Assembly: GCA_020637365.1 (NCBI GenBank)
Contig: JACJWE010000002.1
Span: forward strand, 280,499 to 344,498
Source: Acidimicrobiia bacterium
GTDB taxonomy: Bacteria > Actinomycetota > Acidimicrobiia > IMCC26256 > JAGNEX01
Reading direction: 5' to 3'
Length of the DNA: 64,000 bases
Below the pieces are notes generated by a model. The model did not search any database and was not told the origin of the DNA. It worked only from the letters and a program-made list of their open reading frames with translations. Positions 1 to 56,371 of the stretch are shown here, piece after piece. Positions within the stretch are counted from its first letter, which is position 1; each line of letters starts with the position of its first letter. Both the position numbers and the translations under genes were made by a program.

Positions 1-819
<819 letters not shown>

Positions 820-828
820 TCATGGCGC

Positions 829-856
829 CGATCGGGGCCCCATCGGGGCCCCATCG
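829..856. repeat. 11-bp direct repeat, about 2.5 copies (gatcggggccc / catcggggccc / catcgg). Each full unit contains the palindrome GGGGCCCC.
   Basis: Read directly. It lies between the 3' end of the carrier-protein gene and the groEL promoter region. Confidence 0.7.
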
Positions 857-905
857 GACACATCGACGGGTCGCACGGAGCCGACCCCGCACACCACGTC
901 GTGCG

Positions 906-1181
906 CTACCCCCCCGCGACTGCGGGCACGATGCTCAACACTTGACCCTCGGCGACCGCCGTGTCGGCGCCATCGAGAAACCGAATGTCCTCTTCGGCAA
1001 CGTAGATGTTGACAAAGCGGCGTAGATTGCCGTCGGCGTCGTGAAGCCGGTCGTGAAAGCCCGGATGGGCGTCGTTCAAGGCGACGAGTATCTCTGCGAC
1101 GGTGACCCCGTCGACCTGCACCTCGGCGGCGCCTTCGGACAAGTTGCGGAGCGCGGTTGGAATTCGAACGGTAACTGCCAT
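906..1181 (-). CDS. MoaD/ThiS-family sulfur-carrier protein (91 aa) ending in Gly-Gly
   Basis: Internal start of ORF 906..1274. MAVTVRIPTALRNLSEGAAEVQVDGVTVAEILVALNDAHPGF...GQVLSIVPAVAGG has the beta-grasp carrier pattern and a C-terminal GG. A GAGGAG SD lies 7 nt upstream of ATG 1181, and the gene starts 5 nt after the upstream stop. Confidence 0.8.
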   Translation of the reverse strand: MAVTVRIPTALRNLSEGAAEVQVDGVTVAEILVALNDAHPGFHDRLHDADGNLRRFVNIYVAEEDIRFLDGADTAVAEGQVLSIVPAVAGG

Positions 1182-1185
1182 CTTC

Positions 1186-2433
1186 TTACTCCTCGATCTG
1201 AAACGCTTCGTTGAAAGCGTCGAGAGTCGGCGCGATGGTAGCGGTCGGCCCCACCACCGGTTGCACAGCCTCAAGGGTCTTCAGGCCATGACCGGTGACA
1301 TAGGCAACAACCTTCTCATCGGGCCGGATCACACCCTGTTCGGTCAGTGTCTTCAGGGTCGCGATCGTGACGCCAGCGGCGGTTTCACCGAAGATGCCCT
1401 CGGTCTCGGCCAACAGGCGGATACCCTCCACGACCTCATCATCGCTGATCGCAGCCATCCCGCCGCCGCTTTGACGAACGACGTCGAGAGCGAAATAACC
1501 GTCGGCCGGGTTGCCGATCGCTAGGGATTTGGCGATCGTGTTCGGCTTCACGGGTTTGATCGTGTCGGTGCCTTCGAGGAACGCCGTCGCGACTGGTGAA
1601 CAACCTTCTGAATCGGCCCCCGACATACGCACGTCGGCGGGACCATCGATAAGGCCGACCTTGACGAGCTCTTCAAACCCCTTCTTGATCTTGGTGAGCA
1701 GCGAGCCGGACGCCACCGGAACGACGCAGTGATCGGGCAGCTGCCAGCCAAGCTGTTCGACGGTCTCATAGGCGAGAGTCTTTGAGCCCTCGGCATAGAA
1801 CGGACGCACGTTGACGTTGACGAACGCCCAGGGATACGTGCCAGCGAGCTCGGCGCAGAGACGATTGACGTCGTCGTAGGAGCCGTCGATCGCCACCAGG
1901 TTGCCACCGTAGACAGCCGACGTGGTGACCTTGCCCGCCTCCAGATCGGAGGGGATAAACACATAGGAGTCAAGGCCAGCGTGAGCGGAATGCGCAGCGA
2001 CGGAGTTGGCGAGGTTGCCCGTGCTGGCGCATGCCGCTGTCTTAAACCCGAAGTTGACAGCCTTCGACAAAGCGACCGTCACGACTCGATCCTTGAACGA
2101 GTTGGTCGGATTGAGTGTGTCGTTCTTGATCCACAGGTCGCTGAGCCCCAGCACTTCGCCGAGACGGTGAGCGCGAACCAGCGGGGTGAACCCGGCCCCC
2201 ATATCGATCAGCGGCTCCCGCGGCGTGGGCAGCAACGGCTCGTAGCGCCAGATCGATGACGGGCCCGCTGCAATCGATTCGCGGGTGATCACCGATGCGA
2301 TCGCGTCATAGTCGTAGGCGACCTCTAAAGGCCCGAAGCACCACTCACAAACGTGAATCGGGGCGATTTCATATTCGTGTCCGCACTCTCGACATCGAAG
2401 CGCGCGCACAAAGTCGGCATGCGTTGCAGCCAT
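1186..2433 (-). CDS. Threonine-synthase-like PLP enzyme with an N-terminal Cys4 zinc ribbon. Possibly a MetM-type homocysteine-forming enzyme.
   Basis: 415 aa. It has CRECGHEYEIAPIHVCEWCFGPLEV followed by the ThrC-family fold (NPTNSFKDR PLP-lysine motif). It is preceded by a SAM-I riboswitch and followed by the GG-carrier gene. Confidence 0.85.
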   Translation of the reverse strand: MAATHADFVRALRCRECGHEYEIAPIHVCEWCFGPLEVAYDYDAIASVITRESIAAGPSSIWRYEPLLPTPREPLIDMGAGFTPLVRAHRLGEVLGLSDLWIKNDTLNPTNSFKDRVVTVALSKAVNFGFKTAACASTGNLANSVAAHSAHAGLDSYVFIPSDLEAGKVTTSAVYGGNLVAIDGSYDDVNRLCAELAGTYPWAFVNVNVRPFYAEGSKTLAYETVEQLGWQLPDHCVVPVASGSLLTKIKKGFEELVKVGLIDGPADVRMSGADSEGCSPVATAFLEGTDTIKPVKPNTIAKSLAIGNPADGYFALDVVRQSGGGMAAISDDEVVEGIRLLAETEGIFGETAAGVTIATLKTLTEQGVIRPDEKVVAYVTGHGLKTLEAVQPVVGPTATIAPTLDAFNEAFQIEE

Positions 2434-2516
2434 AGCGGTATCTCTCCTCGTGGTTACGGCATTACGTAGTTCCGCTGCGCTCTGATCGAGCCGTCCACGA
2501 GCTGGCTGCTCGCTGA

Positions 2517-2662
2517 GCTCATCGTTCAGGCATTGGCACCATGCTGCAGCCGGCCCCGTCCCTCACCGCTCGGAGATTGCTCCTACACTGGCTCGGGCCG
2601 ATTCCGTATGCGCTGGTTGCCGCGGCGTCGTCGGGCCTGTCCCTCGACCGCTCTCGATGAGC
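2517..2662 (-). promoter_or_regulatory. SAM-I (S-box) riboswitch aptamer in the leader of the ThrC-like/carrier operon
   Basis: Minus-strand RNA: GCUCAUC-GAGAGCGGUCGAGGGACAGGCCCGACGACGCCGCGGCAACC...(long P3)...GGUGCCAAUGCCUGAAC-GAUGAGC. P1 (GCUCAUC/GAUGAGC), the GAGGGA...GGCCC kink-turn/P2 core, GCAACC and GGUGCCAAU all match the SAM-I consensus. Downstream, CUCGUGG can pair with CCACGAG abutting the GAGGAG SD. Confidence 0.8.
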
Positions 2663-2720
2663 GCATTGGTTCGGTAGATGGTGCCATGCCGCCAAGGACA
2701 GAACAAACCGCTTCCCAAAG

Positions 2721-3676
2721 TTGTTCATGCCAGTACACCGACGCGCCGACGATCCTGATGTTCGCCCCACCGCCACAGATGGTGGCCTCGGCGCGTCGCG
2801 CCGTTCTCTACCACCGCAGGCCCGACCTACCGTCTCGGTCATCATCCCATGTCAGAACGAGGCTCCGACCGTCGCCGCCATCGCCTCGTGCATTCGTCGT
2901 GAACTCGTCGAACGTGAACAACTCGTCGACGAGGTCATCGTCATGGACGATGGATCCACCGACGACACTGCAGCTGTCGCCGCTGCGGCGGGCGCCAAAG
3001 TCATCGCGGTCGACTCGGTACTGCCAGAGCTGATCGCCGGATCCGGCAAAGGGAACGTGCTGTGGAAGTCCCTATTCGCCAGCTACGGCGACGTCATCTG
3101 TTGGGTGGACGGCGACATCCGCAACTTTGAAGCGCACTTCGTCCGCAATCTGATCCTGCCCTCATCGACGATCCAACCCTCTGCTTCGTCAAGGCCTACT
3201 ACCAGCGTCCCTACGAAAACCTGCCCCAAGGGGGCGGACGTGTCACCGAGTTGGTGGCCCGGCCGATGATCTCGCGGTACTTCCCCGAACTCTCCGGGAT
3301 CCGCCAGCCACTCTCCGGCGAATACGCGGGACGACGCAGCGCGCTCGAAGCGGTGCCTTTCGTCGAAGGTTGGGGCGTCGAGATGGGGCTACTCATCGAT
3401 ATTGCTCGCGAGTTCGGCGTCGAATCGATTGCTCAGGCCGACCTGGGGGTGCGACGGCACCGAAACCGAGCCCTCCACGAACTCACACCGCAGGCAGCGG
3501 CGATTATCAACGTAATGTTGCGCCGAGCAGGGTGCGAGGCCACCGGTCAGAGCGAACAGGTCGTCCGGCTGCTACCCGACGGGAGTCTGGAGTGGGTTCC
3601 GGTAGAAAGTCGTGAACGCCCGCCAGCAGCCTCGGTCCAACAACCGAGCGCCTGCGCCGAACGCCCCACCTCCTAA
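2721..3676 (+). pseudogene. gpgS: Glucosyl-3-phosphoglycerate synthase, split by an apparent 1-nt frameshift at C-run 3159-3161. This may be an assembly error.
   Basis: ORF 2721..3269 carries VSVIIPCQNEA...VMDDGSTDDT...GKGNVLWKS...WVDGDI (GT-A/GT81). ORF 3251..3676 carries GGGRVTELVARP...LSGEYAGRR...GWGVEMGLLID...HRNR. One extra C restores NLILPLIDDPTLCFVKAYYQRP. Confidence 0.8.
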
Positions 3677-5262: not shown

Positions 5263-6306
5263 CTAGCCAGCCAAGAAGCGCCTTCCCAGGTCGAGTGCTG
5301 CCTCTTCGGTCAGGAGTTCCGCGCGGGTGAAGGCATCTTCTTCATCGAATGCTCGGCCCATCAGATCGGACACTGCGATGTCGGGTGCGAGCTCGACGTC
5401 GGGTGCGAGCTCGACGTTGGGGTCGACTCGACCGACGATCACCCCACAGTGCGCAACGGCGTACTCACGTGCCAACTCGATGACGTTGCCGACGACCTTG
5501 CCTTCCAGGGAGGCTGCATCTAGCCGACCCTCGCCGGTGAGGACGATCTCGGCGTCCTCGAGCATCTGGTCGAGGCGAGTCGCTTCTGCAACCACTTCGA
5601 AACCTGGGACGAGTTCGGCGCCGATGGCCGCCAGTCCGCCAGCCAGACCGCCAGCGGCACCGGCACCCGGAAGGTGAGCGATGTCGGTCCCGCAACGTTG
5701 TTGATAGAGCAGGGCCAAACGTTCCAAACGGCGTTCAAGCAACGCCACCTGCGCCTCGGTTGCCCCTTTCTGCGGGGCGAACGTTGTCGCCGCCTCGACG
5801 AACGTCGCGGTCACATCGCAGGCGACCGTGACCTTCAAACCGGCGAGACTCCAGCCGAGCGCATCCAAAGCGGGCAGACCACCGTCGGTGCATGCCGTAC
5901 CTCCAACCCCGACGATGATCTCGCGAGCGCCGCCGCGTTGTGCTGCTGCGATGAGTTCGCCAACCCCCCGCGACGTCGCTTGGAGCGCATCGTTGGCGCC
6001 GTCGACCAAGGAGATCCCCGCAGCCTGAGCAGATTCGACCACCGCGACCGAGCCTGGGAGTATGCCGAGCGAGGCGGTTACTTGACGCCCGGTGGGTCCT
6101 GTCACTTTCACCGGTCGAGCCGAACCACCTCGCGCCGAGAGCAGGGCGTCAAGGGTGCCTTCACCACCATCGGCGAGCGGCAGGACTGCGACTCCTGTCG
6201 CTCCCGCCCGCTTGATACCCGATCGCATGGCGGCGGCGGCCTGCGGAGCGGTCATCGACCCCCGAAACTTGTCGGGACAACACAGAACGCGGGGCCGTTT
6301 TGGCAA
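5263..6306 (-). CDS. Glycerate kinase family protein
   Basis: 347 aa. CPDKFRGSMTAPQAAAAM...LPLADGGEGTLDAL...VGVGGTACTDGG...GAAGGLAGGL match the glycerate kinase (GlxK/GarK) family. Confidence 0.8.
   Translation of the reverse strand: MPKRPRVLCCPDKFRGSMTAPQAAAAMRSGIKRAGATGVAVLPLADGGEGTLDALLSARGGSARPVKVTGPTGRQVTASLGILPGSVAVVESAQAAGISLVDGANDALQATSRGVGELIAAAQRGGAREIIVGVGGTACTDGGLPALDALGWSLAGLKVTVACDVTATFVEAATTFAPQKGATEAQVALLERRLERLALLYQQRCGTDIAHLPGAGAAGGLAGGLAAIGAELVPGFEVVAEATRLDQMLEDAEIVLTGEGRLDAASLEGKVVGNVIELAREYAVAHCGVIVGRVDPNVELAPDVELAPDIAVSDLMGRAFDEEDAFTRAELLTEEAALDLGRRFLAG
5380..5415. repeat. 18-bp tandem duplication inside the glycerate kinase gene (encodes VELAPD x2)
   Basis: gtcgggtgcgagctcgac occurs twice in perfect tandem. 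Confidence 0.9.
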
Positions 6307-6993: not shown

Positions 6994-7166
6994 ACGCGCC
7001 TACCGAACTTTGTTGTCGTGTCGACCGTCCTGCCGTCGACGTCGTTGTGCCGTCGATTCGTGTGTCTCGACAGTGTTGGGCCGATAGCGAGGTATTGCCT
7101 GCACCCTGTCGAGTCCGCCAGGTCATCGGGCCGCAGGAACCGACCCAGATGTACCTGTGCGTGTAG

Positions 7167-7240
7167 AGCCGGAGGTCGGATTCGAACCGACGACCTGACG
7201 ATTACAAGTCGTCTGCGCTACCAGACTGCGCCACTCCGGC
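7167..7240 (-). tRNA. tRNA-Thr (anticodon UGU)
   Basis: Minus strand: GCCGGAGTGGCGCAGTCTGGTAGCGCAGACGACTTGTAATCGTCAGGTCGTCGGTTCGAATCCGACCTCCGGCT. It folds as a cloverleaf with a 7-bp acceptor stem, anticodon loop CTTGTAA and a GGTTCGAATCC T-arm. CCA is not encoded. Confidence 0.9.
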
Positions 7241-7484: not shown

Positions 7485-8717
7485 TCAAAGGTCTCCGGTG
7501 ATCGATCCGCTGGCGGGGGCCGCGTTTCGTTGGCGAGCGACCTCGACGCAGACGATCGCGGTCGCCACCGACACATTGAAACTTTCCATCCCGTTGTACA
7601 TCGGAATCGATACGAGCGCGTCGCATCGACGTTTCGTGAGGGTGCTCAATCCGTCGCCTTCGCTCCCCGCCACGATGACGACGGGGGCGGTGTCAAAACG
7701 GACCTGGTCATATGTTGACCCGCCGTCGCCCGCGAGGCCGTAGCTCCAGATGCCGCGCCGTTTCATATCGTCGAGGAAGGACGGTATTCCCGAGACGAGC
7801 GCGATGGGCAGCTTCTCGGCCGCGCCCGCCGCGGCTTTCATCGCCGACGCGCTGAGCCGAGCGGTTCGTTTCTTGGGCAGGACCAGACCGGTTGCACCCG
7901 CCGCGCATGCACTGCGCATAACAGCACCGAGATTCCCTGGGTCGGTGACGCCATCCAGAGCTACCAGAAACGCAGATGGGTCCTCACACAAGGCGTCAAG
8001 TGCCGTTGCTTCGATCGGCGTCGCCCTCGCTTGGACGCCTTGTGGCGTCTGGGATTGCGCCACATTGGAGAACGTCGTCCGAGTGACGGTCCGCACGCTG
8101 ACTCCGCGCTCATACGCTTTGACCATGAGCGCCTCGACATCGGGGTCGTCGGCGCGCAACCCATCGACGGTCAGCTCGATAACTCGTCGATCACCCGACA
8201 ACAGCGCGTCGACCGCCTGTATGCCTTCGACGAGATCACCTCCGATGCCGCCAACGCCGTCGGAGGACCGGCGACTACCGCTGCGAGCCCCGCGACCGAG
8301 ACGTTCACCTTCGCGCGTTCGCACGGATTGTTTGCCAGAACCCTTCGGGGCTCGTTGCGTCGATCGCGTCGATCGTTGCGCTGACCCCGACGTCGCCGTT
8401 ATACCAGCGCCTGGTCGGCTCCCACGCGACACCTGCGCGCCGCCGTGCTGACCTTGACCCGGTTTGGACTTGGTCGACTTGGCCTGACTCGACCTGGACT
8501 GGCCGAACTGCCCCGCGCCCGATTGCCCTGCACCCGATTTCCCTGCGCCCGATTTTCCCGCGCCGGATTTCCCTGCGCCGGATTTCCGCTGGTCGGAGCT
8601 ACCCGGCTTGGCTCTGCCCTGACCAGAGCGGCTCTGGGCGCTCTTTTGTTTGGTTGGACGACCTGGTTTGCCTCGGCTCGTGCCGCCGCCCGGTCCTCCT
8701 GAACGTCGTCCGCCCAT
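7485..8717 (-). CDS. rlmB: TrmH/SpoU-family 23S rRNA 2'-O-methyltransferase (RlmB-like) with a long Gly/Ser/Lys-rich repetitive N-terminus
   Basis: The C-terminal half (FLVALDGVTDPGNLGAVMRSA...IPMYNGMESFNVSVA) is the SpoU methylase domain. The start is taken at ATG 8717, because the longer ORF start overlaps cysS. It sits downstream of cysS, as in other actinobacteria. Confidence 0.8.
   Translation of the reverse strand: MGGRRSGGPGGGTSRGKPGRPTKQKSAQSRSGQGRAKPGSSDQRKSGAGKSGAGKSGAGKSGAGQSGAGQFGQSRSSQAKSTKSKPGQGQHGGAQVSRGSRPGAGITATSGSAQRSTRSTQRAPKGSGKQSVRTREGERLGRGARSGSRRSSDGVGGIGGDLVEGIQAVDALLSGDRRVIELTVDGLRADDPDVEALMVKAYERGVSVRTVTRTTFSNVAQSQTPQGVQARATPIEATALDALCEDPSAFLVALDGVTDPGNLGAVMRSACAAGATGLVLPKKRTARLSASAMKAAAGAAEKLPIALVSGIPSFLDDMKRRGIWSYGLAGDGGSTYDQVRFDTAPVVIVAGSEGDGLSTLTKRRCDALVSIPMYNGMESFNVSVATAIVCVEVARQRNAAPASGSITGDL
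8511..8585. repeat. 15-bp tandem repeat x5 (encodes (K/Q)SGAG pentapeptides) in the rlmB N-terminal region
   Basis: Units are ccccgcgcccgattg / ccctgcacccgattt / ccctgcgcccgattt / tcccgcgccggattt / ccctgcgccggattt. Confidence 0.9.
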
Positions 8718-40548: not shown

Positions 40549-40624
40549 TGGAGCCGGGGATCGGACTTGAACCGACGACCTGCTCATTACGAGTGAGCTG
40601 CTCTACCGTCTGAGCTACCCCGGC
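40549..40624 (-). tRNA. tRNA-Thr (anticodon CGU), with encoded CCA
   Basis: Minus strand: GCCGGGGTAGCTCAGACGGTAGAGCAGCTCACTCGTAATGAGCAGGTCGTCGGTTCAAGTCCGATCCCCGGCTCCA. The anticodon loop is CTCGTAA. Confidence 0.9.
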
Positions 40625-51616: not shown

Positions 51617-52126
51617 TCATTCGGTGCGAGCAGTCGCCGAAGCCGACACGGTGACGTCGGGTACCAACACGCCAACGATCGGTACGTCCGTTGCAATTCT
51701 GAGCTCTACCCGTATCCGCGATGTTTGACCGGGTTGAGCCCGCTGTGCCGCGGTGAGATTGGCACGCTGATCGATATCGCGAATGGCAGCGGCGACCTGG
51801 GCGTCGGTGGCACCGATCGAAAGCTCGCGGACCCCTGCTCGGGCGGCGTTTTCGACCGCCACCCGAGCTTGGGCCACGACCAGGACCTGACCGATCAACA
51901 AGACCACCACGACGATGAGCATCAACACTCCCGCGAACTCGACCGTCGCCTGGCCCCGTTCGCCGAAGCTGGCGGAGCGTTGCTCCGACCAACGGCGAGG
52001 GTCTGCCCCGTCGAGTATGGGTCCACGGGGTGTATCAGCTCGGCCAAGCCACCTCACTGAGCCAGGCGAGAATGCCTCGCCGTCATCACCCGCGTCGTCA
52101 CGGTGTGTATCGGTACTGGTTTTCAT
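51617..52126 (-). CDS. TadE-family pilus assembly protein
   Basis: ERGQATVEFAGVLMLIVVVVLLIGQ is a TadE N-terminal motif. The start is uncertain. Confidence 0.7.
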   Translation of the reverse strand: MKTSTDTHRDDAGDDGEAFSPGSVRWLGRADTPRGPILDGADPRRWSEQRSASFGERGQATVEFAGVLMLIVVVVLLIGQVLVVAQARVAVENAARAGVRELSIGATDAQVAAAIRDIDQRANLTAAQRAQPGQTSRIRVELRIATDVPIVGVLVPDVTVSASATARTE

Positions 52127-52139
52127 CGTGAATCCGGCG

Positions 52140-52475
52140 TCAGGTGACGCTGTTGATGATGCTGTCGATAACTGCGTCGAAGAGTCGCCCGATCGAACCG
52201 CTGCCGGTCGCCCAGGTGATCAACAGCGTCGCCACCGCCGCCGCTCCCAGCATGACCAGCGCATATTCAGCGGTGGACTGTCCTGATTCGTCACCGAAGC
52301 GCAACGCTGAGCGAGGGTCGACGGCGTCATCGCTCAGACCCTGAGATGGGGACTGGTCGACGCCTCCGACACCACCGCCGTCGTCGGCAACGGGCATCGC
52401 AACATCTGTGGCGCTCTGACTGAGCACTCTCATGGTGAGACTCGCTTTCGTGTGTGAATGGAAGGTCCTCGTCAC
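52140..52475 (-). CDS. Flp/DUF4244-type small pilin-like protein
   Basis: The C-terminal GQSTAEYALVMLGAAAVATLLITWATG matches the G/xxxxEY prepilin-like motif plus a hydrophobic helix. The true start is probably internal, for example ATG 52397. Confidence 0.65.
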   Translation of the reverse strand: MTRTFHSHTKASLTMRVLSQSATDVAMPVADDGGGVGGVDQSPSQGLSDDAVDPRSALRFGDESGQSTAEYALVMLGAAAVATLLITWATGSGSIGRLFDAVIDSIINSVT

Positions 52476-52532
52476 GAGGCTCGATGGCAGCGGAGCGCCT
52501 GAACGGACGTAGAGCTGCTGGGCGGGGCGGAG

Positions 52533-53264
52533 TCAACCGCCCGACAGATTCATCGACGCTCCGTCGGCGAGCCCCGCGAGGCTCGGGACGATCGCCAAAC
52601 AGATGAAGGCAGGCAAAATGCAGATCAGGAGGGGGAACAAGAGCTTGACCGACAACGCTTGGATGCGCGCCCGTTGACGAGCGGTCATCGAACGTCGTGC
52701 TTCATCTGCGACTGCGCCCAGCGCGAGATCGCTGGCCGAACCGAGCCGATGGCTATCTCGGAGCACCATCACGGTGGGACGCCACGCCGGTTGCGCCTCG
52801 GCGAGCCGCAACCACCCTTCGACCATGGAAACCCCTTCGCTGGACGCCACGAGTTCAGCTGACGCCATATCGGGTTCGAGATATCGAGCGGTGTGGGTCG
52901 ACACGGCGCTCCAAGCAGCGGTCGCTGAATAGCCCGCGCGCAGACACATTCTCAGCGCTTCGATGACGTAGGGAAGTTCACCGGCGACTCGATCCTCATA
53001 GGCGCGAGCCTCTCGTCGCTGACGCCGCGCCGTGAGCACTCTCAAGAAGGGGACTTCCGACCATCGACCCAATACGTCAGACCGGCCGGCCGCATCGCCA
53101 CGATGAGCGGTCGCCAGGCCCGCTGATGCGGCTGGACGCACAGCGCGGACGGGATGACCGGAGTGGTAGCGAGCCGATCGTCTCAGTGATGCCGCCCGCG
53201 ACCACCTCGCTCCGACAACGGCAAGAAACACCACCAGCGGTATATGCCACCACATTTCGCCCAT
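52533..53264 (-). CDS. Type II secretion system F-family protein (TadC-like)
   Basis: It has a C-terminal LSVKLLFPLLICILPAFICLAIVPS and an N-terminal TM from ATG 53264. The longer ORF start overlaps tadB. Confidence 0.7.
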   Translation of the reverse strand: MGEMWWHIPLVVFLAVVGARWSRAASLRRSARYHSGHPVRAVRPAASAGLATAHRGDAAGRSDVLGRWSEVPFLRVLTARRQRREARAYEDRVAGELPYVIEALRMCLRAGYSATAAWSAVSTHTARYLEPDMASAELVASSEGVSMVEGWLRLAEAQPAWRPTVMVLRDSHRLGSASDLALGAVADEARRSMTARQRARIQALSVKLLFPLLICILPAFICLAIVPSLAGLADGASMNLSGG

Positions 53265-53311
53265 CGGGCTCTTGCTCTCGGCGATACACCAGGTCAGCTG
53301 AGGAATCGGGT

Positions 53312-54118
53312 TCACCGTTCCTCCAGGTGTTTTCTGGATGTGAGCACCGCTCCGGCGACATCCACGTCGCCAACGAGCGTTGCTCCAATGAGCCGTCGCA
53401 TCCAGAAGAGCCCAACGGCCTCGGCGCTCAGGCCGATCCCGATGACTATGCGGCCCCACGGCTGACTCAGCATCGATCCGAACGACTCAGCGTCGGTGAC
53501 CACGACAAGGAGTACCGCGACGAGCGGAAGGCTACAGACCACACCTGCGGAGAGACGCGCCTGTGTCGAGAGCACCCAGGCTTCTCGCCGGTTCTCGATG
53601 GTCAGCCGGAGCGCGTCGAGGTAGCGGTCGATGGCATCGCTTGAGGTACCACCGAGGCGATCCGCCAAAGCAACGCCGTCGAACGCTCGAATGACCGGGC
53701 CGCAGCGGGTGTCGCCTCGCAACGCCAGCTGAGCGGATGCTTCACCCAGGACCTCCTGGACCGAGCGACCCGCGTCGAGTGATTCGGCGAGCCGCTGCGC
53801 ACCTGCTTCTCCCAGGAGGCCTACCCACGAAGCCTGCCGAAGAGCGCCCGCAGGCGTACGACCCGCCCGGACCGATCGCGACACCTCACCCAGGAGGGCC
53901 TCGCCCATACTCAACACCGACTTCGAGAACCGAGCTCGATCCAGCGCGACGGACGGCGACCATGCCGTCACACCCACCGTCGCTCGGACCGCTACGGAAG
54001 GGTCATCCGCAGAGCGGATCGATGTGTACGAAGTATCGGCATCGCCGCCGTCGCCGGTGGTCTGCGATGCGCGCCACATCAACGCCGCTGCGATCGTCAC
54101 AAAGCCCGCCAGGATCAT
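53312..54118 (-). CDS. Type II secretion system F-family protein (TadB-like)
   Basis: It has TM segments at both ends and the T2SSF pattern. It has an ATGA overlap with the tadA stop. Confidence 0.7.
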   Translation of the reverse strand: MILAGFVTIAAALMWRASQTTGDGGDADTSYTSIRSADDPSVAVRATVGVTAWSPSVALDRARFSKSVLSMGEALLGEVSRSVRAGRTPAGALRQASWVGLLGEAGAQRLAESLDAGRSVQEVLGEASAQLALRGDTRCGPVIRAFDGVALADRLGGTSSDAIDRYLDALRLTIENRREAWVLSTQARLSAGVVCSLPLVAVLLVVVTDAESFGSMLSQPWGRIVIGIGLSAEAVGLFWMRRLIGATLVGDVDVAGAVLTSRKHLEER

Positions 54119-55302
54119 GGTGTTTCCCCGACCGATAGGCGAATGTGATCAGCATCGTCGTCCGGGCCCTCGCAACGAACAGGGCGCTGCTCGACTCGGG
54201 CACCACAACCGGTCGCGAGTTGAGGGCCACGATGGGTGTATACGGGACGCCAGGCGTCTCCGAAACGTCGATCGATACGGCTGACGATCCGCTGCGTGTC
54301 GAGTTTTCGAACGACGACGACGACATCGATCGAGGAATGCGCCATCCTCTGGAGCGCCGGCTCACCGACGCCACGATCGGCCAGGAGCGCGAGCGCAACC
54401 AGGCGGTCGATAGCTTCCGCGCTGCTGTGTGCGTGCAGCGTGGCCATCGACCCGCGGTGCCCACAGTGCAGCGCCAAAAGGAGGTCGAGCGCTTCGGGTC
54501 CGCGGGCTTCACCCACGACGAGACGGTCCGGACGCATGCGAAGTGACGCACGGACCAGATCTCTCAGTGTGACAGCGCCAAATCCATCGGCGTTGGGAGC
54601 TCTGGCCTCGAGGCGAACGACGTTGCTGTGGCGGCATACGACCTCGATGGTGTCTTCGACGCAGACGATCCGTTGGGCGGGTGCGGCGGAGGAGAGCATC
54701 GCTCCGAGCAGCGCGGTCTTGCCTGAACCGGTCGGACCCACCACCAACACGTTGGCGTCGTCGTCGACGACACTTCGTAGCGTTGCGCTGCAAGGACCCC
54801 AATCGTCGAGGACAAAGCCCGCGCTCCGATGTCGGCGAACGGTGAGCGTAATCCCGTCAGGCGACACCGGCGGCCCCACAACGTGAAGCCTGTCTCCAGA
54901 CCCGAGTCGGGCATCAGCGATCGGCGATGCGTGGTCAAAACGAATCCCGAGCGGACGGATGGCTCGTTCGACGAAGATCGCCTTTTGGGCATTTCCGACA
55001 ACGTGCGGTGTTGCATGCATCTTGCCCCATCGCTCCACCCACACCGAACCATCTGGGTTTGCCATGACCTCGGTGACGCCATCAAGTTCGATCAACGCGT
55101 CGATCAACCCGAGACCAAACCGTTCCTCTCGGACTCTCGCCGAAAGCGTCTGGATGCGGTGGTCATCGGCCAAGACAAACGCGGCGCGAACCTCCTCGAC
55201 GATCCCCTGCGCGGCGGACTGCCCAGAGGCCTTCCCAAGGGACGACTCATCCGATACCCGAGCTGACATAGTGGCGGATGCGGAGCGCGGCACGGCCTTC
55301 AT
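54115..55302 (-). CDS. TadA/CpaF-family secretion ATPase
   Basis: It has Walker A (VVGPTGSGKTALL), Walker B/Asp box (RIVCVEDT) and His box (GHRGSMATLHA). The start is taken at ATG 55302, forming an ATGA overlap with the upstream stop. Confidence 0.88.
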   Translation of the reverse strand: MKAVPRSASATMSARVSDESSLGKASGQSAAQGIVEEVRAAFVLADDHRIQTLSARVREERFGLGLIDALIELDGVTEVMANPDGSVWVERWGKMHATPHVVGNAQKAIFVERAIRPLGIRFDHASPIADARLGSGDRLHVVGPPVSPDGITLTVRRHRSAGFVLDDWGPCSATLRSVVDDDANVLVVGPTGSGKTALLGAMLSSAAPAQRIVCVEDTIEVVCRHSNVVRLEARAPNADGFGAVTLRDLVRASLRMRPDRLVVGEARGPEALDLLLALHCGHRGSMATLHAHSSAEAIDRLVALALLADRGVGEPALQRMAHSSIDVVVVVRKLDTQRIVSRIDRRFGDAWRPVYTHRGPQLATGCGARVEQRPVRCEGPDDDADHIRLSVGETP

Positions 55303-56171
55303 GCGGCATCGTGAGCTCGAACCGAAGGAGCAGGCGTGGCGATCGTGATGCCTGACCGCTCGACGAGCGTCCGCCACGCTGGCGCCAATGCCTTAGCGAT
55401 CACATCGTTGGGTCGCGTCAGCGACAACCCAGCGTCCGTTGTTCGTGCGATCACAGGGCGCCACGGCACGTCGGCGACGATCGGCGCTCTCAACACTTTG
55501 TCCGCATCGCGGGCGCGGATCGCTCGCCCAGGTTCGGAAATCCATACGACCGCGTCGGGCACACCGTGTCGGGCACGACTTTGAGCGGCGCGGCGCAGTC
55601 CCAAATAGCACCCGCGAAGGACCATCCACGACGCTGCACCTCGTCGTTGGAACCACGAAAACAGCGGATGTTCGCCCCGACCCCCGTCGATGATCACGAG
55701 GCCTTCGAAGTCATCGAGTTGTTGCCGGAATGCTCGTTCGACAGTTGGCGAGCGAAACGGCGTCGCGACGTCCGGGCCGCCATCGGTCGCTGCATCGGCG
55801 ACGCTCGCGCCTATTGAGTGCGCGTCGCGGTCGACCCCCGTCGCGCGTAACGTGGGCGCGGACACAGCGGCCTCAGGCAGTTCGAGATCGCCGCCGTGCC
55901 GTTCCCACGCGCCAACATCACCCTGGGAGAGCAGCCAAACCTCTGGGAGGACCTCTGCGCACGACCTCAGTAACGCACCCGAGCCTGGCGGGTGCGTCGA
56001 TTCCAGCCAGTCCCGCCACCCAAGTCTGGAGGGTTCGGATCCGACGACGGGGGCGAGATCACCAGCGAGGTCGATGAGCAGTACGGGGATTCGGGCAACA
56101 CAGTGCGCCGCAAGACCAGCGACCACCGTCGTCGTACCCGCGCCACCTTTGGGAGACCACATTGCCAACAC
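55299..56171 (-). CDS. CpaE/Ssd-like ParA-family ATPase of the helicase/secretion neighbourhood (septum-site-determining-like)
   Basis: It has the deviant Walker A MWSPKGGAGTTTV. The start is taken at GTG 56171 (AAGGAA SD), because the longer ORF (to 56273) runs through a 10-bp-stem terminator. Confidence 0.75.
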   Translation of the reverse strand: MLAMWSPKGGAGTTTVVAGLAAHCVARIPVLLIDLAGDLAPVVGSEPSRLGWRDWLESTHPPGSGALLRSCAEVLPEVWLLSQGDVGAWERHGGDLELPEAAVSAPTLRATGVDRDAHSIGASVADAATDGGPDVATPFRSPTVERAFRQQLDDFEGLVIIDGGRGEHPLFSWFQRRGAASWMVLRGCYLGLRRAAQSRARHGVPDAVVWISEPGRAIRARDADKVLRAPIVADVPWRPVIARTTDAGLSLTRPNDVIAKALAPAWRTLVERSGITIATPAPSVRAHDAA

Positions 56172-56237
56172 GGCACGTTCCTTCGACCGAAGTAGAGGGC
56201 CAGAAGGCCGACGTTGGCGTCGGGGTCTCGACACGAA

Positions 56238-56262
56238 AGGGCGTGGCACACGGCCACGCCCT
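56238..56262 (-). terminator. Intrinsic-terminator-like hairpin (10-bp perfect stem AGGGCGTGGC / GCCACGCCCT, 5-nt loop), followed by TTTCG on the minus strand
   Basis: Read directly. It lies 35 nt downstream of the stop of the 24-codon peptide gene. Confidence 0.65.
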
Positions 56263-56296
56263 AACCTTCTCAAATTACATAAAAGTCATTCAAATG

Positions 56297-56371
56297 CTAT
56301 GCGTCAGTTGCTTTCTTGGCGAGGATCACACCCGCCGCTACGACGAGCAACACGATCAAGATCTTCTTCAT
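56297..56371 (-). CDS. Tiny hydrophobic peptide (24 aa, MKKILIVLLVVAAGVILAKKATDA)
   Basis: It is below the ORF-track size cut-off. It has an ATG with an AAGGAA SD 5 nt upstream and a Lys-flanked single TM. It is followed by a strong hairpin and embedded in the only AT-rich patch of the region. Confidence 0.5.
   Translation of the reverse strand: MKKILIVLLVVAAGVILAKKATDA

Follow-up and report, generated by a model that had tools for sequence, protein, structure and literature searches.

The 64-kb stretch of DNA analysed here (the window) comes from an Acidimicrobiia-like metagenome-assembled genome (MAG) and carries two adjacent genes behind a leader that contains an S-adenosylmethionine (SAM) riboswitch. 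As read from its sequence, this locus is very probably a two-gene methionine-biosynthesis operon of the MetM/MetO type under the control of a SAM-sensing riboswitch. By analogy with characterised systems, we propose that its first gene encodes a homocysteine synthase, an enzyme of 415 amino acids (aa) that would depend on O-phosphohomoserine and on the thiocarboxylate of a small carrier protein encoded by the second gene. The pathway was published in 2024, and the window locus is a further example of it, not a new system. The features concerned are as follows.

2516-2663, minus strand: SAM-I-type aptamer (RF00162; cmscan 61.0 bits, gathering score 44.4, E 1.1e-11)

About 2544-2612, minus strand: distal insertion of 69 nt in paired region P3 of the aptamer (cmscan insert; minimum free energy (MFE) fold)

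2434-2515, minus strand: expression platform, as predicted with RNAfold

1186-2433, minus strand: metM-like gene for a 415-aa pyridoxal 5'-phosphate (PLP) enzyme with the fold of threonine synthase, ThrC (Pfam, hidden Markov models, clade placement)

906-1181, minus strand: metO-like gene for a 91-aa beta-grasp carrier of the ThiS/MoaD/CysO type (Pfam ThiS 7e-13)

The MetM/MetO route is known from Streptomyces albulus (Hasebe et al. 2024, Appl Environ Microbiol 90:e01247-24), here through the accounts given in two papers that cite it, PMC12172450 and a GapMind 2026 preprint. As related there, MetM and MetO convert O-phosphohomoserine to homocysteine, with MetO as the sulfur carrier, MoeZ as the E1 (activating) enzyme and Mec for the hydrolysis step; metM is preceded by a SAM riboswitch, and MetM is a ThrC homologue that is 'often misannotated'. 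A first-pass annotation of the window had pointed to a Streptomyces route made of a ThrC homologue and a carrier, and the S. albulus work, as these papers describe it, bears this out. The window locus shares with S. albulus a ThrC-homologous PLP enzyme gene beside a small gene for a GG-ending carrier, the SAM riboswitch upstream, the annotation of the enzyme as threonine synthase and, presumably, the placement of the MoeZ and Mec genes elsewhere. It differs in its lineage, in a riboswitch that lacks P4 and has the 69-nt insert in P3, and in a carrier that ends exactly in GG.

A cmscan search of the whole window against Rfam returned three matches, namely two tRNA genes and one SAM riboswitch, and the enzyme open reading frame (ORF) starts 84 nt downstream of the latter. 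The leader had initially been described as a textbook SAM-I aptamer with a long insert in P3. Its membership in the family is upheld by a score above threshold, and the P1 pairing and the elements GAGGGAC..GGCCC, GCAACC and GGUGCCAAU are all present, as is the insert. The aptamer is not textbook, however: in its alignment to RF00162 all 17 model positions of P4 are deleted, and P3 is separated from the second strand of P1 (the 3' one) by just 11 nt (AAUGCCUGAAC). The resulting layout is a three-way junction of P1, P2a/P2b and P3, together with the pseudoknot PK-1. P1 is formed by GCUCAUCG (2662-2655) and CGAUGAGC (2524-2517), CAGG in the P2 loop is able to pair with CCUG to give PK-1, and the core nucleotides agree with the SAM-I consensus. 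The P3 insert is predicted to fold into a long imperfect stem capped by GGAG-CAAU-CUCC, and the stretch from GAGGGA to GGUGCCAA measures 113 nt in the window against 53-86 nt in relatives. The insert is specific to the window's species, with the same aptamer present at L001-L004 (loci in our comparison are cited by L number).

Relatives of the enzyme gene were collected by a scan of one genome per species, which gave 80 loci at 58-76% identity. These span Acidimicrobiia, Cyanobacteria, Chloroflexota, Nitrospirota and Aquificaceae, and in the genome collection the species nearest to the window's own belong to the Acidimicrobiia (66-76% identity). A SAM riboswitch precedes the enzyme gene at all of the approximately 29 Actinomycetota-type loci and at five Chloroflexota loci. 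When the leaders among the 80 loci were scanned, no SAM element was found at cyanobacterial or Nitrospirota metM loci, in agreement with the paper on a Microcystis homologue.

The absence of P4 is not peculiar to the window. The same aptamer design without P4 was found upstream of metM at 25 loci, which comprise 23 Acidimicrobiia or unclassified Actinomycetota/Actinomycetes MAGs and L023, the window lineage being counted once:

Window 2516-2663, minus strand, and L005-L025, L031, L044 and L056: P4-less SAM aptamers upstream of metM

In each, the order of elements is P1, P2a/P2b, PK-1, P3, AAUGCC(C/U)GAnC and then the 3' strand of P1. Because the P3 insert upset the MAFFT alignment of the window aptamer, a covariance model of the P4-less design (R1) was built from 23 relatives with the window sequence left out, to which the window aptamer was then aligned. 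R1 gives the window aptamer, which is outside its training set, 83 bits, and gives 38-58 bits to P4-containing SAM-I aptamers upstream of metM in Chloroflexota, Miltoncostaeaceae and Mycobacteriales. In the 23-sequence alignment, 96% of the cells are paired, compared with 31-49% in slid controls, and in seven pairs both partners vary, of which four belong to the five-pair helix P2a, two to P1 and one to PK-1. The PK-1 helix reads CGGG with CCCG or CCGG with CCGG, and its pair 27-109 is GC in 19 sequences, AU in two and CG in two. Covariation among the 23 relatives thus supports P1, P2a and PK-1.

How the aptamer might act on expression can be judged from the sequence between it and the enzyme gene. 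Scanning 700-3000 for promoters and terminators gave no promoter and a single terminator-like site, which falls within the coding region; the leader itself has no intrinsic terminator. RNAfold predicts that GCAGCCA (2509-2503) pairs with UGGCUGC (2432-2426), overlapping the start codon, and that GCUCGUGG (2502-2495) pairs with CCACGAG (2453-2447), covering the 5' edge of the Shine-Dalgarno sequence (SD) GAGGAGAG (2449-2442). In most relatives the 3' strand of P1 directly abuts the SD, with 16 of the 23 reading GAUGAGGAG and L010 reading GAUGCGGAG (17 of 23 together). Where this was checked in short-leader relatives (e.g. L009 and L012), the start codon follows close behind the SD, and in several relatives the 5' flank is complementary, by inspection, to the start-codon region. 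Leaders are longer (66-109 nt) in the window and the three relatives nearest to it, and each of these four is predicted to pair its SD with an upstream anti-SD. The lack of a leader terminator, the abutment of P1 and SD, and these SD/anti-SD folds therefore favour translational repression by SAM as the predicted mode of control of the window leader.

It could be asked whether the aptamer is a degenerate, non-regulatory relic, disabled by the loss of P4 and by the P3 insert, in an operon that is expressed constitutively. P4 is indeed missing and P3 is broken by a species-specific insert, the leader as a whole has a modest MFE z-score of -1.86, and the platform fold is predicted to be identical with or without a free 3' strand of P1, which also tells against the mode of control favoured above. 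On the other hand, 25 loci have the P4-less form, with covariation, in the same place before the same gene; the core of the window aptamer agrees with the SAM-I consensus; the SD follows immediately on P1 in the 16 relatives and L010 just described; and SAM-IV riboswitches likewise lack P4 yet bind SAM. We consider a relic extremely improbable and retain a SAM-sensing leader as the preferred reading.

The enzyme downstream of this leader matches Pfam PALP (4e-69), and the families that fit it best are thrC models, with the cysteine synthase A model reaching 39.5 bits against a cutoff of 387. Aligned with Thermus thermophilus ThrC, it keeps the PLP lysine (K114, in the motif SFKDR) and the S-T-G-N loop. 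Four residues that we take to be the substrate-phosphate site of that ThrC are replaced (T88 by L141, S155 by N208, R160 by Y213 and N188 by S242), and there is a new arginine, R210. L141, N208, R210, Y213 and S242 are invariant in 80 of 80 relatives, an invariance that is biased for Y213, since Y213-K218 lay in the search pattern, whereas L141, N208, R210 and S242 lie outside it. Speculatively, this remodelling of the phosphate site would fit a change from the water addition at C-beta carried out by ThrC to a gamma-replacement.

The same region provides a sequence signature. The window enzyme reads N-V-N-V-R-P-F-Y-A-E-G-S-K-T where canonical ThrC has N-S-x-N-P-x-R-x-E-G-Q-K-T, and the canonical motif is kept in the canonical ThrC of Nonomuraea and in ThrCs from the PDB. 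The general form N-x-N-x-R-x-[YFW]-Y-x-E-G-[SA]-K occurs in most 50%-cluster representatives above approximately 42% identity, with a few close variants, and is gone below approximately 41%. Together with Leu in S-T-G-N-L and Ser in A-S-G, the motif separates the MetO-linked clade from canonical ThrC and could serve as an annotation rule.

Comparison with canonical ThrC (T. thermophilus 1UIM and M. tuberculosis 2D1F) summarises what is kept and what is changed. The fold, the SFKDR motif and the S-T-G-N loop are the same at 36-39% identity, and O-phosphohomoserine is the likely common substrate. In contrast, the window enzyme adds an N-terminal Cys4 zinc ribbon (C14, C17, C29 and C32), which is also present in non-signature ThrC-family relatives, and has a 5+2-residue insertion around 286-298; its gene adjoins a carrier gene instead of hom/thrB, and its control would be by SAM.

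In a neighbour-joining tree, the window protein falls within the MetO-linked clade at 55-75% identity, while four solved ThrCs and the Nonomuraea ThrC lie outside that clade and are 36-39% identical to the window protein. The ThrC phylogeny called for at the outset thus places the enzyme outside the canonical group. Bacillus subtilis ThrC is 36% identical to the window protein and is reported to be 33% identical to MetM, and the window protein shares 59.7% identity with the protein encoded at the Microcystis locus L083.

The carrier encoded directly after the enzyme gene ends in ..PAVAGG right before its stop codon. Both its GG terminus, noted in the first-pass annotation for a 91-aa beta-grasp protein, and its own GAGGAG SD are there: the ThiS match is clear, and GAGGAG lies 7-12 nt upstream of the ATG, within the last codons of the enzyme gene. 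The position immediately behind the enzyme gene also stands, with a spacer of 4 nt (GAAG) between the metM stop codon (TAA) and the carrier ATG. This linkage is conserved. At about 72 of the 80 loci, the next ORF after the enzyme gene is ThiS-like and ends in AVAGG or AIAGG, with the GG trailed by short extensions in a few, and the arrangement is seen in Acidimicrobiia, Cyanobacteria, Chloroflexota and Nitrospirota.

Two relatives are particularly informative about the function of the pair. In the complete genome of the actinomycete Nonomuraea gerenzanensis (L085 5819-9905), the order is SAM-I riboswitch, metM (55% identical), metO (ending ..AVAGG) and groEL, as in the window, and the genome also has a separate canonical thrC of 352 aa with thrB immediately after it. 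The shared order indicates that the groEL linkage is conserved from Acidimicrobiia to Streptosporangiales. PLSDB lists the Nonomuraea sequence, NZ_LT559118.1, among its plasmids, although it is an 11.85-Mb chromosome. With the Nonomuraea MetM as query, a homologue search yielded Streptosporangiales only, and there was no Streptomyces match to metM in the plasmid collection.

In the Nitrospirota locus L070 (3160-8253), the genes run PALP (CysK/M-like), ThiF, metM, metO, NIL, ThiF and JAMM. The ORF sizes of L071 match this operon, as do those of L064 as far as its locus reaches. Judged by its gene content, the L070 operon brings together all of the machinery that a protein-thiocarboxylate pathway needs for activation and release, and the cluster may serve both cysteine and homocysteine synthesis. 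A sulfite reductase gene adjoins the Dehalococcoidia locus L028.

A carrier-dependent PLP enzyme could in principle make a different sulfur compound, such as cysteine from O-phosphoserine, or a thio-amino acid destined for a cofactor or a natural product. The nearest solved relatives of the window carrier are of the CysO type (4n6e_B, 2e-18; M. tuberculosis CysO 3dwg_C, 1e-17), the Nitrospirota operon includes the CysK/CysM-like PALP gene, and SAM-I riboswitches control cysteine-related genes too in some bacteria. The M. tuberculosis CysM/CysO/Mec/MoeZ system (PDB 3DWG) follows the same logic, with a carrier thiocarboxylate attacking a PLP-bound O-phospho-amino-acid intermediate, and its CysO is homologous to the window carrier (E 1e-17). 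Yet the window enzyme has the ThrC fold, for which the substrate would be O-phosphohomoserine, and not that of CysM/CysK; it is under a SAM riboswitch; and by analogy its expected substrate and product are O-phosphohomoserine and homocysteine. The characterised member of the family makes homocysteine, according to the accounts of the S. albulus work, and the wide spread of the genes in contexts of primary metabolism speaks against a specialised natural product. In addition, Acidimicrobium ferrooxidans and Aquifex aeolicus were reported to be without any homocysteine route known at the time (Price et al. 2018), and the metM clade found here includes both Acidimicrobiia and Aquificaceae. We regard another sulfur compound as unlikely and homocysteine as the preferred product.

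Several observations weigh against assigning the enzyme to the MetM/MetO route, in addition to the unresponsive platform fold noted above. TIGR00260 thrC scores 286 bits, over its cutoff of 167; NF006050, at 292 bits, stays under its cutoff of 303. The phosphate-site roles of the replaced ThrC residues are assumed from the structural literature on T. thermophilus ThrC. The tie to S. albulus MetM is an indirect chain through the Microcystis homologue, which is reported to be 51.6% identical to S. albulus MetM and to have a metO-like neighbour, and then through the 59.7% identity of the Microcystis protein to the window protein. That homologue is reported to have weak threonine synthase and threonine deaminase activity and not to be clearly MetM-like in vivo. 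Finally, there is no gene for a ThiF-type E1, a JAMM protein or a rhodanese in the window or in 10 kb beyond it, as judged from called genes 10 kb either side, Pfam searches of ambiguous window ORFs and inspection of the remaining translations by eye. The first-pass annotation had already noted that no E1 or JAMM gene lies nearby, which extends to the adjoining 10 kb.

These points raise the question of whether the enzyme is simply a housekeeping threonine synthase, as annotated, with an adjacent carrier that serves molybdopterin, thiamine or tRNA thiolation. The thrC model score is in line with this, as is the naming: the identical protein, recorded in databases from an Actinomycetota MAG, is called 'threonine synthase' and so are its relatives. 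The best solved relatives of the enzyme are ThrC structures, and the reported Microcystis activity points the same way. However, the gene is controlled by a SAM riboswitch and not by a threonine signal, and its pairing with a carrier is conserved across phyla, with an E1 and a JAMM protein in the Nitrospirota operon. It belongs to a clade of its own, apart from canonical ThrC, and Nonomuraea has both a member of that clade and thrC-thrB; the four residues taken as the ThrC phosphate site are replaced, and neither hom nor thrB is found in the 64-kb window. A housekeeping threonine synthase is thus very unlikely. The initial suggestion that MetM/MetO fits better than housekeeping ThrC gains support from the clade, the carrier linkage, the E1 and JAMM genes of L070 and the thrC-thrB pair of Nonomuraea. 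The suspected misannotation as ThrC likewise has its parallel in S. albulus MetM, as the citing papers describe it.

For the MetM/MetO-type operon, the characterised family and the precedent of M. tuberculosis CysM/CysO suggest the following course. A MoeZ/ThiF-type E1 encoded elsewhere would adenylate the Gly-Gly end of the carrier and convert it to a thiocarboxylate; because the carrier ends exactly in GG, it would need no C-terminal trimming. The PLP enzyme would bind O-phospho-L-homoserine and eliminate phosphate, and the carrier thiocarboxylate would then attack C-gamma to give homocysteine, possibly by way of a carrier-homocysteine adduct that a Mec-type JAMM hydrolase would free. Homocysteine would be methylated to methionine and converted to SAM. 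Once abundant, SAM would bind the leader aptamer, and the mRNA fold would hide the SD and start codon, in the translational mode predicted above.

Two possible extensions of the published pathway concern the architecture of the aptamer and an associated small protein. With SAM-I (RF00162), the window aptamer shares the sequence of the core, PK-1 and, where SAM-I has its kink-turn, a P2a/P2b internal loop, but SAM-I has a four-way junction with P4 where the window aptamer has a three-way junction. With SAM-IV (RF00634), it shares the absence of P4 between P3 and P1; SAM-IV, however, has P5 and PK-2, and most P4-less relatives leave no space for P5. In the window, a hairpin CGAGC-AGCCA-GCUCG follows P1, and Rfam clan competition retained SAM-I as the best model. 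A search by eye found no PK-2-type pairing of the P3 loop with the tail common to the relatives, and a P5 hairpin was not consistently present among them either. A SAM-IV-style PK-2, in which the P3 loop would pair with the SD or the tail, was considered and set aside: it can be drawn in a few relatives, such as L022 (CCUCCUC/GAGGAGG), and is absent from L021 and L024.

The associated protein is a stand-alone NIL-domain protein of about 80 aa that recurs with metM and metO (Pfam NIL 4e-14 to 5e-12). Its gene lies between metM and metO at seven Chloroflexota loci, directly after metO at four Nitrospirota loci (L064, L070, L071 and L073), and 2-4 kb downstream, past groEL, in Acidimicrobiia. The NIL genes are located as follows.

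L001 13741-13992 (the window's genome): NIL gene, 2.2 kb beyond metO and just outside the window

L028 4447-4689 and L070 6497-6736: NIL genes

L039, L047, L066, L072, L082, L084, L064, L071, L073, L016, L017 and L021-L024: NIL genes at further loci

In the DUF39 pathway, the NIL domain is genetically tied to homocysteine synthesis (Price et al. 2018). The DUF39/NIL-ferredoxin pathway of methanogens and Desulfovibrio (MA1821/MA1822) thus shares with the loci described here a NIL domain tied to homocysteine formation. The NIL protein linked to metM/metO differs in having neither a DUF39 nor a ferredoxin domain, and in its association with PLP and carrier-thiocarboxylate chemistry.

We tentatively put forward a joint proposal, possible but on balance doubtful, that Acidimicrobiia have a minimal SAM aptamer intermediate between SAM-I and SAM-IV and that the NIL protein may be a third, undescribed component of the MetM/MetO route. 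The minimal aptamer, as proposed, would consist of the SAM-I core, the P2 internal loop and PK-1, and would have neither P4 nor P5/PK-2. Such P4-less aptamers are a natural test of how much scaffold the SAM-I core needs.

In Acidimicrobiaceae, two proteins are encoded in the interval from groEL to the NIL gene, one of about 240 aa and one of about 300 aa with an SGGxDS motif (L021 8309-9986, L016 4932-6469 and L017 8378-9888). The latter has a weak match to NAD_synthase/PP-loop and could be a sulfur-transfer ATPase.

As long as the window gene and thousands of relatives are named threonine synthase, a methionine pathway stays hidden, and the misnaming can yield false predictions of auxotrophy for uncultured Acidimicrobiia, Chloroflexota, Nitrospirota and cyanobacteria. 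A simple rule to tell MetM-like enzymes from true ThrC is the joint presence of L141, S242 and N-x-N-x-R-x-[YFW]-Y-x-E-G-[SA]-K. The distribution of the loci would extend the 2024 pathway well beyond Streptomyces and fits the reported homocysteine gap in Acidimicrobium and Aquifex; should Acidimicrobiia and Aquificota have no other way to make homocysteine, this route would close the gap pointed out in 2018. Possibly worth follow-up are the class of P4-less aptamers, the link to the NIL protein and the motif as a diagnostic.

The operon is flanked on one side by a divergent GT2 gene and on the other by groEL, the NIL-domain gene, amt and glnD. The GT2 gene (2721-3676, plus strand) is split into two overlapping ORFs around 3161, where it has a deletion of 1 bp in comparison with metagenome contig L002, to which it is otherwise 99.8% identical. 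The split is either an assembly error or a pseudogene. Other genes of the window recognised by eye include those for ClpC, RadA, DisA, LysS, TopA, FtsH and pyruvate kinase, as well as NadB/C, PanC/D, TilS, Tmk, NadE and others. The window has only two tRNA genes, both for tRNA-Thr (7166-7240 and 40549-40624, minus strand), with anticodons UGU and CGU.

Two in-frame tandem repeats were also seen. The first, at 5376-5432, consists of 3.2 copies of an 18-bp unit encoding VELAPD in a glycerate kinase gene, and its copy number varies between metagenome contigs; the second, at 8511-8587, has five copies of a 15-bp unit encoding KSGAG in the N-terminal extension of a SpoU/TrmH methyltransferase. A Tad/Flp-type pilus cluster lies at about 52100-56300 and comprises a small Flp-like ORF together with genes for a CpaF-like ATPase, two membrane proteins of the T2SSF family and possibly a CpaE-like protein. 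The members of this cluster were identified by eye, apart from the two T2SSF proteins, which have Pfam matches; the CpaE-like ORF has no Pfam match.

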